IMG/VR virus record: IMGVR_UViG_3300042908_001001
Span: 1-64,000 of that record
Direction: 5' to 3' (one strand)
Length of the DNA: 64,000 nucleotides
Source of the DNA: a virus
Part shown: positions 6,515 to 59,476 of the stretch, one piece after another
Numbering within the stretch: the first letter of the stretch is position 1
Layout: the number at the start of each line of letters is the position of its first letter
Made by a program: the position numbers and the translations under genes
Notes under the pieces: generated by a model
The model's input: the letters and a program-made list of their open reading frames with translations, nothing else
Told to the model about the DNA's origin: nothing
The model's database searches: none

Positions 6515-7542
6515 GTTTTCGCAATGTTATTTCTGATAAAGGTAGTAAATTTAGGACTGGATTAGATAAAATAAGTCCGTCTAATACCTCTGTTGTTATT
6601 GACAGTAATGTAGGGAATAATTCAGTTAGATTATTTAGAAGTGGGCTAGGAAAAAGTCAATCCGTAACAACGGTTGATCAGTCAATAATTGAGATTGTTC
6701 GACCCCAACTTTTTAGGAATGGATTAGGAAAATCTAGTCCTGTTGTGACAACTACAACTCAGCCAGTTATTGAAGTTGTGCGTCCTCAATTATTTAGAAC
6801 GGGATTAGGTAAAAGGGATGGGGGTGGCGCGATCGCAGATCCCTTAGAATCCCTAAAAACCAACTTAATAAGTTATTGGAATTTAGACGAATCTAGTGGT
6901 ACTAGAAACGATTCTTTTGGGACTAATCACTTAACTTTATCTGGTACGGTTGACAATAAGTTTAATGGAGCAAATTTTAACAATAGCCCTAGTAATCGAC
7001 TTGCAAAAACTAGTAATTCAGACTTACAAATAAATGGCAGTAGTTTTACTGTTTGTTGTTGGGCATGGTTGCGATCAAAAACAAGTTATAGGGGATTTAT
7101 TACAAAAGATGACATTAGTTCTGGGCGGGAATTTAACATAGCTTACATCGCGTCAGAAGGTGCAATATTAGATAAAATAGTTTTTAACGTTTTTAATTTA
7201 GCCGTAGGAACTGGCGGGGCATCTGCGATCGCGTCAACATTTGGGAGTCCTCCAACGGAACAATGGATCTTTGTTGTTGGGCAATATGATTCAGTTAATA
7301 ATTTAGCCTATATTTCTGCAAATAACGGAGCAAAAAATTCTGTCTCTACAGCAGGAATTTCGGTCGGTGCTGGTAATGCGGATTTTACGATTGGATCTTG
7401 GAGTGGTGGGGTTTTTTCTCTTACTAATGACGGAGGAGTAAAACAAGCAGGATTGTGGAAAAGACTATTAACAGACGATGAAATAACTTTGCTTTATAAC
7501 AATGGACTAGGGAGAAAGTATATAGGATCTAGCTTTGTTTAA
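6511..7542 (+). CDS. LamG/concanavalin-fold tail protein with four N-terminal FRxGLxK repeats
   Basis: LISYWNLDESSG...FTVCCW...QWIFVVGQYD...LLTDDEITLLYN. Confidence 0.8.
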   Translation: MSFRNVISDKGSKFRTGLDKISPSNTSVVIDSNVGNNSVRLFRSGLGKSQSVTTVDQSIIEIVRPQLFRNGLGKSSPVVTTTTQPVIEVVRPQLFRTGLGKRDGGGAIADPLESLKTNLISYWNLDESSGTRNDSFGTNHLTLSGTVDNKFNGANFNNSPSNRLAKTSNSDLQINGSSFTVCCWAWLRSKTSYRGFITKDDISSGREFNIAYIASEGAILDKIVFNVFNLAVGTGGASAIASTFGSPPTEQWIFVVGQYDSVNNLAYISANNGAKNSVSTAGISVGAGNADFTIGSWSGGVFSLTNDGGVKQAGLWKRLLTDDEITLLYNNGLGRKYIGSSFV

Positions 7543-18277: not shown

Positions 18278-19654
18278 TCAAATCTTAAGCTTGACGATAA
18301 TATTCCCGCGATCGCAAGTCACCCGCTCAACCAATTCCCTGAAAATATCTCTCAACTCGAAATTAGTGGCAAGTCCCCAGAAATTAGGGTCGGATGTCGC
18401 TAGTAAATGCTCACTTAATAAATGATTATTTCTTTCTCCATATTGAGCATTAATCAAATTACTTAATTTAGTTTCATCTGCAAGAATAATATCATTCAGT
18501 CTAGGATCGTTTAACGATTTTAGTTGAGTGATATTCTTTCTTAGTTCTCTAATTTCTGGACTTTCTACAATCTCAGATTCACCCTCACATCCCCATTTAG
18601 CAACCTCCTGGGAGCGTAAAATCAAGGCGTCTATCACAGCATCAATATAATCTTGAATCTTTAGTCCGTAACTGGTTCTTATGCCACAAGTCGCACTTTT
18701 TCCGCATCTTGGGTAAGCTCCGTTACAGTACAGATAATAGGCTTGTTTTCGTGCATTGATAACCGATTTGGCTGACATACGACTTCCACAAGTACAAAAT
18801 ATAGACCCTGCTAACGGATTTCTCAATGTATCTGATTTTTTCGTTGTTTTGCTTGAATCTAATATGTTTTGAATATTTAGCCATTCTGATACCGTAATCA
18901 ATGGTTCATGATGATTAGGAATTTCAATTCTTTTGTTTTGTTTCTTTGGAAAATAAACCAACGTACCAATCAATGACGGGTTTTTTAGCCAGTCAATAAA
19001 AGCCGATTGGGTGTGAGGGAAATCATCCTCATGCGCCCTTAATCTCTCAGTGCCAAATCGTTTACACAATGCCCTAACCGTTCCTGAAGCTGTTTGAATT
19101 TCATAAAAGGTATCAATCGCTATTCTTACGACTTCTGGGTAGGTTATTCCCGTATCTTTGTATAGATTCCTATTAATAATTAATTCATCATTCACCATCA
19201 AATAACCAAAACAGGGTTTAAGCGGTAAATGTTTTGATCTGCGGTGTTGCATCCCTTTTAACGCTTGCTCTTGATTTAATCGCCTCTGAAAAGCATCGGT
19301 AGCCGCGATCACACTACTGGTATAAATCCCTACTGCCGATGTAATATCAAGCTTCCCTCTGTCCAAAGAAATCATCGTCACTCGCATTCTTTCGCATCGA
19401 CTTCTCAAATCAGCCCATATCATTTCATCCCTAGCCAGTCTTGATTGCAAAGGAAAAATTAATTCATCCCCTTCTCTCAAGATTTTCATCACAAAATCCA
19501 AACCAGCCCGCCCCATCTTGCCGCCACTGATAATATCGTAATAAATATTTTCAGGCTCCACCCCCGCCGCGATCAATTCCTTGGTGTATCGCTCGCTCGC
19601 ACTATTGTCTTCAAATTGATGTAACGTTGATTGTCTCCAGTAACCGATTTTCAT
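18278..19654 (-). CDS. large serine recombinase (integrase)
   Basis: MKIGYWRQST catalytic Ser motif, SRLAR, recombinase domain, zinc ribbon (CTCG...YLYC); AGAGGGA RBS before ATG 19654. Confidence 0.92.
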   Translation of the reverse strand: MKIGYWRQSTLHQFEDNSASERYTKELIAAGVEPENIYYDIISGGKMGRAGLDFVMKILREGDELIFPLQSRLARDEMIWADLRSRCERMRVTMISLDRGKLDITSAVGIYTSSVIAATDAFQRRLNQEQALKGMQHRRSKHLPLKPCFGYLMVNDELIINRNLYKDTGITYPEVVRIAIDTFYEIQTASGTVRALCKRFGTERLRAHEDDFPHTQSAFIDWLKNPSLIGTLVYFPKKQNKRIEIPNHHEPLITVSEWLNIQNILDSSKTTKKSDTLRNPLAGSIFCTCGSRMSAKSVINARKQAYYLYCNGAYPRCGKSATCGIRTSYGLKIQDYIDAVIDALILRSQEVAKWGCEGESEIVESPEIRELRKNITQLKSLNDPRLNDIILADETKLSNLINAQYGERNNHLLSEHLLATSDPNFWGLATNFELRDIFRELVERVTCDRGNIIVKLKI

Positions 19655-21714: not shown

Positions 21715-21793
21715 TTAATTTGTTTTATAATTTTGTTGACATTTTCGTTGAGTTGCCCTATTCTTGGAATAACCTATAAGAGAGGCAATCGCC

Positions 21794-33421: not shown

Positions 33422-34090
33422 ATGAACAATCAAATAGAAATTAAAGAAGACGCTAAAACTAGGGATGATTTAATCTGGAATGATAAAGAAAAAATCTACT
33501 ATCACGCTAACGGTAGGAAAATTTCTCAATATCAGATGCTTCAGTTAATTAGGCGTGAACAAAAAGCGTTTAATCAAGATATTGACGTTTACACTAGAGG
33601 GTTATTAAATAAGGCTATAAGTTTTGAAGATTATCAAAAGTTAGTTAAGGAGTCTGTCAGGGATTCTCATGTTCAAATGATGCGATTGGGTCGCGGTGGG
33701 AAGGAACGGACGGCGGCTATCCATTATCTAGACGTTGCCAACGAATTAAGGGAAAATCAATACCCCCCGTTGAGGGATTTATTTCAACAGTTAGCCGATG
33801 GTAAGCTTTCGGAAGCTCAACTCAAGGCAAGATTAAAAGCATACATCAAGGCTTCCAAAATCAGCTTTGAGCGGGGTAGAGAAAGCCAGCAAGCCATGAT
33901 TAAGCCGATGGAGGTTAGATTGTTAGGCTCTACCGATAGGCACTGCTCAGATTGCATTTATTACGCAAGTAGGGGTATTCAACCATTGGGGACGTTGCCA
34001 GTCCCAGGGCAAGCTTGCCAGTGTCGTCAAAACTGCCTTTGCTCTAAGATTTTTGGGACTCTTGAGGAGTTGGTAAAAAGATTAGCTTGA
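33422..34090 (+). CDS. head morphogenesis protein (Mu F-like)
   Basis: C-terminal HCSDC...PG..CQCRQNCLC; follows the portal. Confidence 0.75.
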   Translation: MNNQIEIKEDAKTRDDLIWNDKEKIYYHANGRKISQYQMLQLIRREQKAFNQDIDVYTRGLLNKAISFEDYQKLVKESVRDSHVQMMRLGRGGKERTAAIHYLDVANELRENQYPPLRDLFQQLADGKLSEAQLKARLKAYIKASKISFERGRESQQAMIKPMEVRLLGSTDRHCSDCIYYASRGIQPLGTLPVPGQACQCRQNCLCSKIFGTLEELVKRLA

Positions 34091-34115
34091 CAAAAATTAA
34101 AACATTTATTATGAT
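34087..34115 (+). promoter_or_regulatory. sigma70 promoter of the ncRNA locus
   Basis: TTGACA-17 nt-TATGAT. Confidence 0.8.
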
Positions 34116-34121
34116 TTTAGA

Positions 34122-34427
34122 TAAGGTGATCAAGGCTAGTGAATCCCGAATGGGTGTACCGTTCAGTGACCCACGAGCGTAGTAAGAACGATAAGAGTTG
34201 CACTTATCCATTTATACGGATAAGTCTAGTAATGATCTCCTTTAACGGGCGGAATAGAAAGTGGATTCTCTCGGAATGATCAACCGAATGGTATGTCACA
34301 TCCGTCCATTCCCGTTTTCGGGATACATGGGAGAGATGATAGGGAGTACCCTAAAAAGTGCGATGAACTATCACCACTCCAGCCTAGTGAAGTGTGTCCC
34401 GTTTTCGGAAAAACAAGGCGATCAAAA
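34122..34427 (+). ncRNA. structured non-coding RNA region of unknown class
   Basis: Nested helices GATCA..GCTAG/CTAGT..TGATC, TGGGT/ACCCA, ACTTATCC/GGATAAGT, GGGCGGA/TCCGTCC, TGATAG/CTATCA; no credible ORF. Confidence 0.55.
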
Positions 34428-34526
34428 GCGGCTAATGGCGGAAATATGAGAGACGCGCTTGATTTTATCAGGTTCTTATCCCCTTTTTGAGGGTAAGAGT
34501 CCAGTTGCAAGTTCTGGTTAGCCGCG
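34428..34526 (+). ncRNA. tRNA-like RNA: 8-bp acceptor, long variable arm, 5-nt anticodon loop
   Basis: GCGGCTAA/TTAGCCGC; D arm GCG/CGC; CTTGA-TTTTA-TCAGG; TCTTATCC/GGGTAAGA; CCAG/CTGG. Confidence 0.65.
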
Positions 34527-34539
34527 ATCGCCTTTAATT

Positions 34540-34610
34540 GGGGAGTTAGCAAAGAGGTAATGCAGGGGAGATTCGTCCCCGACACTCAGGTTCGAGTCCT
34601 GAACACCCCA
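34540..34610 (+). tRNA. tRNA-like RNA with 6-nt anticodon loop (pseudo-tRNA or mimic)
   Basis: GGGGAGT/ACACCCC (one mismatch), D arm GCA/TGC, GGGGA-GATTCG-TCCCC, perfect T arm TCAGG-TTCGAGT-CCTGA. Confidence 0.75.
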
Positions 34611-34612
34611 TT

Positions 34613-34792
34613 TTATTTATCCTTAACCGAATTTTGCCCTGTAAGGTATCCGAGTATTCCCCCGATGCCTACCTTGGCAATATCCCCCGCAATGGGAAGG
34701 GATTCAATCGGGTTTTCCCAAGGTTTAGACGATAGCCAAATCACGACAATGGCAGTCACCACAAAGATAGGCAAAAACTCAGCAAGTTTCAT
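34613..34792 (-). CDS. small two-helix membrane protein, holin candidate
   Basis: Hand translation MKLAEFLPIFVVTAIVVIWL...GDIAKVGIGGILGYLTG (59 aa); ATG overlaps the upstream stop. Confidence 0.55.
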   Translation of the reverse strand: MKLAEFLPIFVVTAIVVIWLSSKPWENPIESLPIAGDIAKVGIGGILGYLTGQNSVKDK

Positions 34793-35046
34793 TTAATATT
34801 CCTGTTATTTTTAATGACAAGTAGAGCTATTTTAGGGATTGTAACCCCCATCCAAAAAAGATTAAGCCATGTCGATGAATAAGCACCGTAAAACCCAGTA
34901 TAAATTACAAGAAACAATCCCCCTAAAAAATTAGAAATAAGATATGAAAACGAGTCTGTTGTGATTTTTTTGTTAAAACTTAAATAATAAGACCCTAATA
35001 CTAAAATCGTTCCAATCCACCCAAGAATATCAATTAATAGTTTCAT
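34789..35046 (-). CDS. 3-TM membrane protein (CBU_0592-like)
   Basis: DILGWIGTILVLGSY...Y...N.LGG...AY....LN.FW. Confidence 0.7.
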   Translation of the reverse strand: MKLLIDILGWIGTILVLGSYYLSFNKKITTDSFSYLISNFLGGLFLVIYTGFYGAYSSTWLNLFWMGVTIPKIALLVIKNNRNIK

Positions 35047-35963
35047 TATTCCTCAATATAAATATCGTACCCTATAATATTTCTAATCCCTTGCACAGGA
35101 GAACCATCCGATTCAATTGGTTCAACGTCATGCCATAAAGGGGAACCCACATCAGCTTGAAAAATAGCATCGCCTTCTAACAATAAAGTCCTTAGAAGTT
35201 CGGTTTTTTTGTCATCATCATAGACAACGCTTTCACCTCCAATTATGCCTTTTCGTTCTACTACTAAAGCAGAAACAATATAGTCACATCCATCTTGGTG
35301 AATACCTTCAGGAGCATTAGATTCTTCCCGATTATCATCAGGCTTAGAAACAATTCCCACTTGTTGGCAAATGATTTTTATTTTTTTAGTTTCCCCCTTT
35401 TCGGCAATATCCGTAAACGTTGCTAGGTAAGCCAGTATTTTCCTGAATTCATCATTGCTAGTTACTTCTACAGGAGATGGGGGGAATGATCTTGGTAAGT
35501 TTCGGTAATCAAGTAAAACGTCAGACGTTTGGCGGTACGGGACATAAGGCAACTGCTCAATACTCCATTCAAAGTCTTCACCACTTTTCCCCAATAAAAA
35601 GCTAGATATACCCCGTCTTCGATAGGGTTGAATTTCTTCAAAAGCCGCAATATCTTCTTTGTCAAATCGATCAACAAAACGCCTTAAATCCGACAATGAA
35701 ATTATATCCGCAAAATAATCAGGCAAAAAAGTTTCTAGAAAAAACTCTCTTAACCAAGGAAACTTTTCGATCAGGAAATCTACTTGATCACGCTTAACTA
35801 AATACATATCCCAAGGAAGAGATTCGTAGGTTGGGCATATGTTCTGTAGTTTACCTAAATCAATTCCAACATCTCGCAAATTAAATTTAAGTATTGGATA
35901 TTCTGTATTTAGTTTTTCAACTAATGAATTTGCCAAGGTCAAGGTCTTGTAATAACTGATCAT
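35046..35963 (-). CDS. 2OG-Fe(II) oxygenase (PF10014-like)
   Basis: YRRR; NAPEGIHQDGCD (HxD); LWHDV; distal R. Confidence 0.8.
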   Translation of the reverse strand: MISYYKTLTLANSLVEKLNTEYPILKFNLRDVGIDLGKLQNICPTYESLPWDMYLVKRDQVDFLIEKFPWLREFFLETFLPDYFADIISLSDLRRFVDRFDKEDIAAFEEIQPYRRRGISSFLLGKSGEDFEWSIEQLPYVPYRQTSDVLLDYRNLPRSFPPSPVEVTSNDEFRKILAYLATFTDIAEKGETKKIKIICQQVGIVSKPDDNREESNAPEGIHQDGCDYIVSALVVERKGIIGGESVVYDDDKKTELLRTLLLEGDAIFQADVGSPLWHDVEPIESDGSPVQGIRNIIGYDIYIEE

Positions 35964-46738: not shown

Positions 46739-46802
46739 AGCTTTTTATTGGTTTATTTTCTATTATTTTAATCTAAAACATTTTAATTTGTCAAGAAAGT
46801 TA

Positions 46803-58753: not shown

Positions 58754-59476
58754 ATGGTACTTGCAGTAAATAGTAATCAGAGAGCGCGATTTGTAAAAAG
58801 TTTAGGGATTGACGAAAATAGTCTCCCTTTTGTATTATTCCCTAAACAATCTTTAATTCAGTCGGTTAGTAACTTAGTGACTGAATCGGTCGCTGGTTTT
58901 GATATTCCCATTATTAATGATTTTACGCCTTCCGAGAAACTCCTTTTTACCGCGATTGATTTAAAAGCCCGTCCTCTCTATATTGAATATCAGGAAGTCA
59001 ATGAGGATCTGGCAGAAGCATTGTCTTTGGTCGTTACCGCCGATGGTTCGCCATTAGTTCCCGATGGAATTGAACCGATTAAATTCATCACTCCTGATTC
59101 TGAATTTGTGCAATCAGAGATTTATACACAAATCACAAAATCACAGTCTTACAAGCGATTTAAACGTGACAACCGTGAGCTATTTGACGATCAGGATCAG
59201 GTCTATACGAAACTGATTATCCTTGACCTCACAATGGGACGTGCCAAAGTTGCTTTATTCCTTTCTACTCGGATTGATACAACTTGGTTTGATCGTGCAA
59301 ACGAGTTAAGTGTTGAGCAAATTAAGGAGATTGTGCAATTTATCCAGAAGGAAGGTAACGGGGGTAAAACGGAAGATGAACCAACAGAAGAAGACGAAAC
59401 TAAAGGAGAGGTAGTTACCGAAAAAAACGACTCCAACAAGAAATCGAAAGATGGTCAGATCACTACTGGGAACTAG
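58754..59476 (+). CDS. tail assembly chaperone (gpG-like)
   Basis: Position after the tube gene; slippery A-AAA-AAC at 59422-59428. Confidence 0.7.
   Translation: MVLAVNSNQRARFVKSLGIDENSLPFVLFPKQSLIQSVSNLVTESVAGFDIPIINDFTPSEKLLFTAIDLKARPLYIEYQEVNEDLAEALSLVVTADGSPLVPDGIEPIKFITPDSEFVQSEIYTQITKSQSYKRFKRDNRELFDDQDQVYTKLIILDLTMGRAKVALFLSTRIDTTWFDRANELSVEQIKEIVQFIQKEGNGGKTEDEPTEEDETKGEVVTEKNDSNKKSKDGQITTGN

Follow-up and report, generated by a model that had tools for sequence, protein, structure and literature searches.

Two tRNA-shaped elements lie in tandem on the plus strand of a viral DNA, at positions 34428–34526 (element 1) and 34540–34610 (element 2). The question that they raise is whether RNAs with such irregular anticodon arms decode, once decoded or are made for another purpose. 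The first-pass annotation had described them as tRNA mimics whose anticodon loops are too short to decode. This observation as a whole is partly confirmed, and its structural interpretation is partly supported. The reading that we favour, at somewhat less than an even chance, is that the locus is expressed as a polycistron whose tRNA-like RNAs are irregular, do not decode and would be processable by RNase P and RNase Z.

Genomic setting of the locus

The stretch of DNA that was analysed (64 000 nucleotides; referred to as the window) is the first part of a 76.5 kb IMG/VR record with an estimated completeness of ~88%. The window has a GC content of 37.6%, contains the cyanobacterial HIP1 octamer GCGATCGC 39 times and encodes a phage portal protein, the small subunit of ribonucleotide reductase (RNR), ThyA, the DnaN clamp and a 2OG-Fe dioxygenase (PF10014). 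The portal protein best resembles cyanophage portals (S-CBS4, CL131, PaV-LD and Pam3; 19–26% identity). Because of the HIP1 copies and this likeness, the record was read as that of a cyanophage. The commonest codon of the phage is AAA and the third commonest is GAA; CAA is also favoured. Pfam models for a CCA-adding enzyme, RNA ligase and RtcB gave no match in the phage record, and an RNA-repair or CCA-enzyme context was accordingly set aside. A search of the record with PF09511 was uninformative, as its controls were silent.

The locus occupies a convergent junction. A plus-strand block (the portal, a 57-aa ORF and a 222-aa gene ending at 34090) lies on its 5′ side and a minus-strand block (59-aa and 85-aa membrane-like ORFs, the dioxygenase and RNR) on its 3′ side. 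Its GC content is 45–50%, compared with 37.6% for the window. No credible ORF was found on either strand between 34090 and 34612. The small ORFs that are present are implausible, and a protein-coding reading of the region was rejected. Several other assignments were also discarded. The known RNAs of Rfam (tmRNA, group I intron, ROOL/GOLLD and YrlA) gave no matches, and a tmRNA, a viral tRNA-like structure or a YrlA-type mimic found neither an Rfam match nor an ARAGORN tmRNA call in the window or region. For a tRNA fragment marking an attP site, a search of the 76.5 kb record that covered tyrosine integrases (PF00589) found none, and the tRNAs of 200 sampled cyanobacterial genomes included no close match.

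Two tandem tRNA-like elements

Element 2 (34540–34610, plus strand) belongs to the tRNA family, with its L-shape core and its acceptor/T-arm helix intact. Infernal aligned it to positions 1–71 of the tRNA model RF00005 with a score of 42.8 bits (E = 1.6e-7; gathering threshold 29 bits), and it was the single tRNA match in a search of the whole record. Element 2 escaped the fast-filter Rfam run at gathering thresholds and was detected by the sensitive run. With default settings, the sole ARAGORN call in the window was a 73-nt tRNA-??? at 34539–34611 with a 2-nt 'anticodon' in a 6-nt loop; under -rp it was flagged as a 'Possible Pseudogene'.

The acceptor stem of element 2 (34540–34546/34603–34609) contains one A5·A68 mismatch and has an optional eighth pair, U34539:A34610. 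It is followed by the D arm (34549–34563), an anticodon arm (34565–34580) with a perfect GGGGA/UCCCC stem and the loop GAUUCG (34570–34575), the variable loop GACAC (34581–34585), a perfect T arm (34586–34602; TCAGG/TTCGAGT/CCTGA) and the discriminator A73 (34610). The canonical core is present (U8, A14, G15:C48, G18G19, A21, G53:C61, U54–A58 and the T loop UUCGAGU), including all of the elbow nucleotides (G18, G19, U54, U55, C56, A58 and G53:C61). Element 2 thus resembles a canonical tRNA (RF00005) in its D arm, T arm, variable loop and core tertiary nucleotides, and canonical tRNA genes in the tandem layout, the 13-nt spacer and the lack of an encoded CCA, which neither element carries. It differs in the 6-nt GAUUCG loop.

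The perfect T arm and the 6-nt loop that were noticed at first pass are both present. The loop has A at the position of U33. All single-base insertions into GAUUCG were enumerated, and none yields U33 together with a purine at position 37 (xU-NNN-Rx). A deletion of one base in assembly or sequencing therefore does not explain the 6-nt loop, and an assembly indel, which had been put forward as a possible source, is not borne out. From what is known of standard tRNAs, a loop of this length should not support normal triplet decoding, so the description 'too short to decode' is supported for element 2. The accompanying claim that the pattern is not that of random decay is weak for this element: one or two lesions fall at the two diagnostic loop positions and about two at the ~53 diagnostic positions elsewhere, which under a conservative mapping corresponds to p ≃ 0.1.

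The nearest full-length matches of element 2 are tRNA-Gln(UUG) genes, at ~71% identity in three cyanobacterial genomes; against the tRNA-Gln(UUG) of T4-like Enterobacter phages the identity is 77.6% over 56 nt. Alignment shows that the U1...A72 frame, the D arm and the T arm are in common, and the loop differs by several substitutions and a deletion. Element 2 therefore does not represent a fresh copy of any of the host tRNAs sampled.

Element 1 (34428–34526, plus strand, 99 nt) is a statistically non-random five-helix cloverleaf with a 12 bp acceptor/T branch and a U-rich loop, and it lacks the tRNA sequence signature. RNAfold folds 34428–34527 into this cloverleaf at −34.8 kcal/mol (z = −2.6), and ARAGORN reports it at thresholds of 90% or lower. 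The RNAfold structure has an 8 bp acceptor (34428–34435/34518–34525), a D arm (34438–34456) with a 3 bp stem and a 13-nt loop without GG, an anticodon arm of 17 nt (34457–34473), a 25-nt variable-arm hairpin of 8–9 bp (34474–34498), a T arm (34501–34517) with a 4 bp stem (CCAG/CUGG) and a 9-nt loop, and the discriminator G73 (34526). All four features first reported for this element, namely the 8 bp acceptor, the 4 bp T stem, the long variable arm and the G discriminator, are therefore present. ARAGORN gives an alternative 7/5 reading with a 7 bp acceptor and a 5 bp T stem flanked by U·U. The five helices comprise ~30 base pairs with no mismatch; there is one bulged U in the variable arm. Between the elements is a 13-nt spacer (34527–34539), and a HIP1 octamer (34524–34531) extends from the last acceptor bases across G73 into the first part of the spacer. 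ARAGORN, Infernal and RNAfold together bear out two tandem tRNA-shaped elements on the same strand.

The resemblance of element 1 to a tRNA is one of shape. No Rfam family (tRNA, tRNA-Sec, tmRNA or others) matched it even at E ≤ 10 in a search of 119 nt, so that in contrast to element 2 it has no match to RF00005 at all. Its elbow retains G53:C61, U54, U55 and A58 and is without C56 and the D-loop GG. The T loop, UUGCAAGUU, has 9 nt, with two extra bases and G in place of C56. Because the D-loop GG is missing and the T loop is altered in this way, the elbow is not canonical, and for the same reason element 1, too, is probably not a normal adaptor.

The likelihood of such a fold arising by chance was assessed with ARAGORN on shuffled sequences. 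On 30 dinucleotide shuffles of the window, the default settings gave 0 calls and the run at 90% thresholds (ps90) gave 0.93 calls per window. When the 416 nt preceding element 2 were shuffled 1500 times with local composition preserved, only three plus-strand ps90 calls were obtained (p ≃ 0.002). Since such calls are this rare and element 1 adjoins, at a distance of 13 nt, the only true tRNA match, its fold is unlikely to have arisen by chance. Mismatches abound in the four remaining ps90 calls of the window, and these appear to be false positives.

The anticodon arm of element 1 can be read in three ways: 6 bp with the loop TTTTA, 7 bp with a loop of 3 nt (RNAfold) or 5 bp with the 7-nt loop A-U-UUU-A-U. 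With default settings ARAGORN did not call the element, and at 90% thresholds it called a tRNA-Lys(UUU) with the 7-nt loop AUUUUAU (34462–34468), U33 and A37. The 5-nt loop TTTTA given by the first-pass annotation is thus a possible reading, provided that A34462 and U34468 are paired. The statement that both loops deviate from 7 nt does not stand, as a standard reading with U33, UUU and A37 is available for element 1, and that its loop is too short to decode is likewise not established. For unmodified RNA the pairs A32:U38 (A34462:U34468) and U33:A37 are predicted with probabilities of 0.955 and 0.75, respectively. An A32:U38 pair is tolerated in decoding tRNAs, for example in Escherichia coli tRNA-Ala(GGC).

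These observations bear on the proposal that at least one of the elements still translates, which we regard as improbable. Element 1 would then be an allo-tRNA-like reader of AAA, charged either by LysRS, with UUU as the recognition signal, or by SerRS, with the long arm and G73 in that role, and element 2 an unconventional decoder, using for example doublet or −1 frameshift decoding. The tRNA-Lys(UUU) call with U33 and A37 and the rank of AAA as the commonest phage codon are consistent with this, and long-arm tRNAs of the 8/4 type that combine G73 with a non-serine anticodon are translationally active in E. coli and have also been found in phages (PMC5389517). Against it, element 1 has no D-loop GG, carries G56 and a 9-nt T loop, has a 3 bp D stem with a 13-nt loop and matches neither the tRNA nor the tRNA-Sec model; moreover, positions 32:38 and 33:37 are predicted to be paired. 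For element 2, no natural decoding tRNA with a 6-nt loop was found in the literature searched.

Pseudogenes of tRNAs are common in phage tRNA clusters, and the main alternative, to which we give appreciable weight, is that the locus is a decaying tRNA cassette. Its members would once have been ordinary codon-supply tRNAs (of the Lys-UUU and Gln/Glu types) and would now be pseudogenes, element 2 being the most recent to decay, element 1 older, and the unit at 34247–34308 (described below) and the leader the oldest. Any transcript would have no function beyond perhaps aiding termination at the convergent junction. The pseudogene flag of ARAGORN on element 2, which also weakens the reading that we favour, and the A·A acceptor mismatch accord with decay, as do the failure of element 1 in every covariance model and its missing elbow nucleotides, the favoured codons AAA, GAA and CAA, and the lack of any tRNA-related enzyme among the Pfam models searched in the record. 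The strongest point for function is that element 1 keeps ~30 pairs without a mismatch while its tRNA signature is undetectable: neutral decay that erased the loop signature should also have broken the stems. The claim that this is not random decay is accordingly better founded for element 1 than for element 2. Function is further favoured by the intact core of element 2, in which, one acceptor mismatch aside, every diagnostic lesion lies in the anticodon loop, by the finding that no single inserted base repairs GAUUCG and by the low chance probability of element 1 (~0.002).

Both loops carry U-rich triplets, UUU in element 1 and UUC in element 2, in a phage in which AAA and GAA are common codons. 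We count this in favour of function; the triplets and the codon usage fit an origin in codon supply and mimicry of tRNA-Lys(UUU) and related tRNAs with U-rich anticodons equally well.

Putative transcription unit and processing

A σ70-like promoter site (TTGACA-17-TATGAT, 11 of 12 matches) was located at 34087–34115 on the plus strand, beginning 3 nt before the end of the 222-aa gene. The window contains 19 perfect TTGACA-N16–18-TANNNT sites, where ~3 would be expected by chance (our estimate), and the TTGACA sites sort into recognizable promoter families. The site at 34087 has TTGACAAA..TTAAAA in common with a site at 46794 on the minus strand. Owing to this excess of perfect sites and their grouping into families, it was accepted as a likely promoter. 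Matches of at least 11 of 12 positions number seven in the window and 3.7 in shuffles, an enrichment of only about twofold. The position of this site next to the locus, and its membership of the over-represented TTGACA family, favour function, and its retention, like a GC content still well above the genome mean, is not what decay would predict.

Downstream of the promoter-like site are ~490 nt without a credible ORF. They include a non-coding leader or upstream RNA of ~300 nt (34122–34427, plus strand), for which folding predicts a closed multibranch domain (34128–34237) and a partial cloverleaf of 62 nt that lacks a T arm (34247–34308; 7 bp closing stem with G·U at the third pair). A repeat search identified two identical TCCCGTTTTCGG hairpin cores (34310–34321 and 34397–34408). 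The leader gave no Rfam match, and ARAGORN in mitochondrial mode found nothing in it. The 5′ part of the unit at 34247–34308, with its leader, resembles the leader and 5′ part of element 2 (70% over 27 nt). A tRNA-like unit minus its T arm, with a 5′ part like that of element 2, would suit a cassette in decay; however, this likeness falls short of significance, its score being reached in 72 of 1000 shuffles, and homology of the unit to element 2 was rejected. Compact phage genomes would not usually harbour ~520 nt of dead DNA, which again argues against decay, and the retention of this length of non-coding DNA at a raised GC content favours function.

At the 3′ side, element 2 is followed by the U-rich tail TTTTATTTAT (34611–34620, plus strand), at which the transcript may end. 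The next gene (34613–34792) is on the opposite strand, hence the convergent junction. A consensus scan called no plus-strand intrinsic terminator after element 2 and detected a minus-strand terminator-like hairpin at 34377–34360. The fold of 34122–34427 has a z score of only −1.73 on the plus strand, which is not significant, whereas the minus strand reaches −3.94. The better minus-strand fold and the uncalled plus-strand terminator weaken the reading as a processed polycistron, and a weak, strand-ambiguous leader structure is compatible with decay. The same data bring in a very unlikely explanation, that the locus is not tRNA-related: it would serve the convergent minus-strand operon as a termination or 3′-UTR structure, or would give rise to an RNA from the minus strand, and element 2 would be a tRNA fragment that is present incidentally or was captured; or else the loop would be an assembly error. 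The strand preference of the fold, the minus-strand hairpin and the location of the region exactly where two transcription directions converge are in keeping with this explanation. It is contradicted by the end-to-end fit of element 2 to the plus-strand tRNA model, by the position of element 1 on the same strand at a spacing typical of tRNA genes (13 nt) and by the promoter-like site directed into the locus; an assembly error is opposed by the insertion analysis of the element 2 loop.

Under the favoured reading of a non-decoding polycistron, transcription would start at the σ70-like site and proceed through ~490 nt to element 2. Each acceptor helix would be cut on its 5′ side by host RNase P and trimmed on its 3′ side by RNase Z or exonucleases, and the CCA-adding enzyme of the host would complete the ends. 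The expected products are an upstream RNA of ~300 nt with a defined 3′ end and two stable tRNA-sized RNAs. Element 2 would not serve as a normal adaptor, and both elements would act as tRNA-shaped, non-decoding RNAs. This scheme is weakened by the structure of element 1, in which the absence of G18G19 and C56 and the 9-nt T loop may hinder RNase P, the CCA-adding enzyme and factors that read the elbow.

Known systems, possible roles and relatives

Precedents for several aspects of the locus have been described, and they favour function. Irregular 7/5 and 8/4 tRNAs with no known function occur in polycistrons, and some of them are inactive in translation and have been suggested to be regulatory (Mukai et al., 2017; PMC5389517). 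The D arm of allo-tRNAs is like that of tRNA-Sec (a long stem with a tetraloop). They were found with the tRNA-Sec covariance model, and the known cases belong to Clostridia, Proteobacteria, Acidobacteria and phages of these groups, none of them to cyanophages (PMC5389517). Element 1 resembles the 8/4 or 9/3 allo-tRNAs in its 12 bp 8/4 acceptor branch (as a predicted structure only), its long variable arm, G73 (the serine identity set being G73/U73) and its non-serine anticodon triplet, and as in the allo-tRNA polycistrons it adjoins another irregular tRNA. It differs in the 3 bp D stem with a 13-nt loop, in the 9-nt T loop and in giving no tRNA-Sec match at E ≤ 10. As it has neither the tRNA-Sec-like D arm nor a covariance-model match, element 1 was not assigned to the allo-tRNAs.

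RNAC and RNAD of phage T4 are stable small RNAs of unknown role that are co-transcribed with the tRNA region (PMC3014915, PMC9697503). The upstream RNA of ~300 nt is comparable as a phage non-coding RNA beside tRNA or tRNA-like genes; there is no sequence or Rfam relationship, and the T4 cluster holds functional decoding tRNAs, whereas the present locus holds none that is clearly functional. Phage tRNAs evade anticodon nucleases by changes in the anticodon loop (PMC10264068), and phage tRNAs that escape or replace the targets of these nucleases have been described (PMC10264068, PMC11555353); tRNA-Lys(UUU) is the target of PrrC (PMC10264068). The locus is similar in that its deviations are concentrated in the anticodon loop and its triplets are U-rich (UUU/UUC). 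In contrast to element 2, the evading tRNAs keep 7-nt loops and decode. Phage tRNA genes are now seen as countermeasures to tRNA-cleaving immunity, and every known case still decodes. In the literature searched, we found no description of a non-decoding tRNA decoy in phages or of a natural 6-nt anticodon loop. PARIS AriB and the collateral cleavage of Cas13a reportedly also target the group of tRNAs with U-rich anticodons.

Three roles were ranked for the RNAs. The first, that they act as processing and stability handles for the co-transcribed RNA, is itself unlikely. Ranked second, with a rather smaller chance, is a role as uncleavable competitors for proteins that recognize the anticodon arms of U34 Lys/Glu/Gln tRNAs (nucleases and modification enzymes). 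Another regulatory function comes third and would be more surprising still. The phage could conceivably, though we think it doubtful, express uncleavable, non-decoding decoys that mimic the U-rich Lys/Glu/Gln anticodon arms and counter anticodon nucleases or other tRNA-targeting defences, the handles being cut to release the 300-nt RNA.

The consequences depend on which reading holds. An expressed and structurally maintained non-decoding tRNA look-alike would point to a strategy of decoy or sequestration, and a decoy would form a class of counter-defence separate from the 'replacement tRNA' strategy already described. The locus would also offer compact natural scaffolds, a non-Sec-like 8/4 long-arm cloverleaf and a tRNA body with a 6-nt loop, for probing the requirements of RNase P, the CCA-adding enzyme, synthetases and anticodon nucleases. 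If both elements are no more than pseudogenes, the locus is an ordinary snapshot of the rapid gain and loss of tRNAs in cyanophages.

Homologues of the RNA were sought in several collections. In 50 697 phage records, blastn found none, element 2 having only weak matches to tRNA-Gln genes. Scans of IMG/VR for exact and gapped patterns gave matches in coding sequences only, at chance level. BLAST against the 200 sampled cyanobacterial genomes returned neither a homologue nor a close tRNA match, and the RNA had no homologue in 22 related loci (blastn and nhmmer) or in 39 loci encoding dioxygenase homologues (blastn). The lack of an RNA homologue in the phage collection, IMG/VR, the cyanobacterial sample and the related loci weakens the non-decoding polycistron reading.

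Close relatives of the proteins were found in ENA, Logan and JGI contigs (portal, 85 and 64% identity; 222-aa gene, 77–81%; dioxygenase, 83–90%). The portal protein, used singly or as an alignment, retrieved no close relatives from the viral, metagenome and genome collections scanned, and an alignment search with the dioxygenase gave only relatives of at most 42% identity. With an alignment of the 222-aa gene, 11 loci at 39–50% identity were obtained. No tRNA lies within 4 kb in any of them, nothing in them resembles the RNA, and the genes downstream of the locus are not common to them. The corresponding slot usually holds an unrelated coiled-coil ORF of 134–187 aa or almost nothing. A decayed copy of this ORF was considered as the source of the locus and dismissed, since tblastn showed no similarity. 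The occupancy of the slot in these relatives weakens the reading as a functional polycistron, and the absence of the locus from them suits decay. It also implies that we are dealing with an accessory cassette, specific to this lineage and placed at a module boundary, and not with a conserved core function.

Some relatives carry tRNA genes elsewhere, such as a normal tRNA-Cys, a tRNA-Met with acceptor mismatches and an aberrant tRNA-like gene of 141 nt with duplicated D-arm-like segments. The tRNA content therefore varies among these phages, and single, partly aberrant genes of this kind fit the rapid gain and loss that the decay reading supposes.

Hairpins and a partial cloverleaf in the leader

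The non-coding leader upstream of element 1, an irregular long-arm cloverleaf (34428–34526, plus strand), contains two exact copies of a 12-nt hairpin core, TCCCGTTTTCGG, at 34310–34321 and 34397–34408, spaced 87 nt apart. A comparable layout, with a C-run, a U-loop and a G-run, is seen in element 1, whose variable arm is CCCCTTTTTGAGGG. The two cores and the variable arm could be a shared protein-binding hairpin.

A partial cloverleaf of 62 nt lies at 34247–34308 and is closed by a 7-bp stem, GGGCGGA/UCCGUCC. The third pair of this stem is G·U and the base that follows the stem is A, so that the G3:U70 and A73 identity pattern of tRNA-Ala is matched. A D-like arm with GG is present and the T arm is absent. 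The leader sequences of this unit, GATCTCCTTTAAC, and of element 2 (the tRNA-family gene with a 6-nt anticodon loop), GATCGCCTTTAATT, are alike, but not significantly so (p = 0.07).

Minus-strand folding of the leader, which is about 300 nt long (34122–34427), is significantly stronger (z = −3.94, with none of 100 shuffles as good) than plus-strand folding (z = −1.73), and a terminator-like hairpin on the minus strand lies within it (34377–34360). The convergent minus-strand operon may be a partial user of this region.

Other tRNA-like sequences

At 90% thresholds, ARAGORN returned four further 'tRNAs' in the window, at 6634–6797, 18888–18984 and 59258–59354; two of the four are 97 nt in length with 6-nt loops. 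Several stem mismatches were present in each, and all four were taken as false positives.

An aberrant tRNA-like gene of 141 nt was found in a related phage (L173; IMGVR_UViG_3300047564_004575, 1501–1641) using the Rfam tRNA model RF00005 (40.1 bits), with no call from ARAGORN. Its acceptor (7 bp) and T arm are both perfect; the anticodon region carries a 36-nt insertion and the variable region a second D-arm-like segment. The same contig encodes a normal tRNA-Cys.

Flanking genes and promoter-like sites

The 222-aa gene 3′ of the portal gene (33422–34090) is conserved in a metagenomic phage family that includes loci L159–L169, and its product carries a cluster of invariant cysteines (C175, C178, C199, C201, C205 and C207). 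Synteny between the window and these loci is lost directly downstream, where the slot in most relatives is filled by an ORF of 134–187 aa that is unrelated and of coiled-coil or membrane type, or is almost empty. The PF10014 2OG-Fe dioxygenase gene (35046–35963, minus strand) had no homologue among the related phages compared, and a sample of 400 cyanobacterial genomes gave none at E ≤ 1e-30. Assemblies from ENA, Logan and JGI contain many relatives of 83–90% identity, and contigs of 84 kb and 248 kb carry some of them.

The window contains 19 perfect TTGACA-N16–18-TANNNT sites, for example at 21736, 24831, 38232, 62903 (minus strand) and 46794 (minus strand); 52418, 53173, 55683, 57607 and 58289. 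Common flanks divide them into at least two families, two of which share GTTTTA..TTTTGTTGACATTTT and AAATACTTGACAAGTA..TAAGAT, respectively. These families are probably phage promoter classes for the host RNA polymerase.
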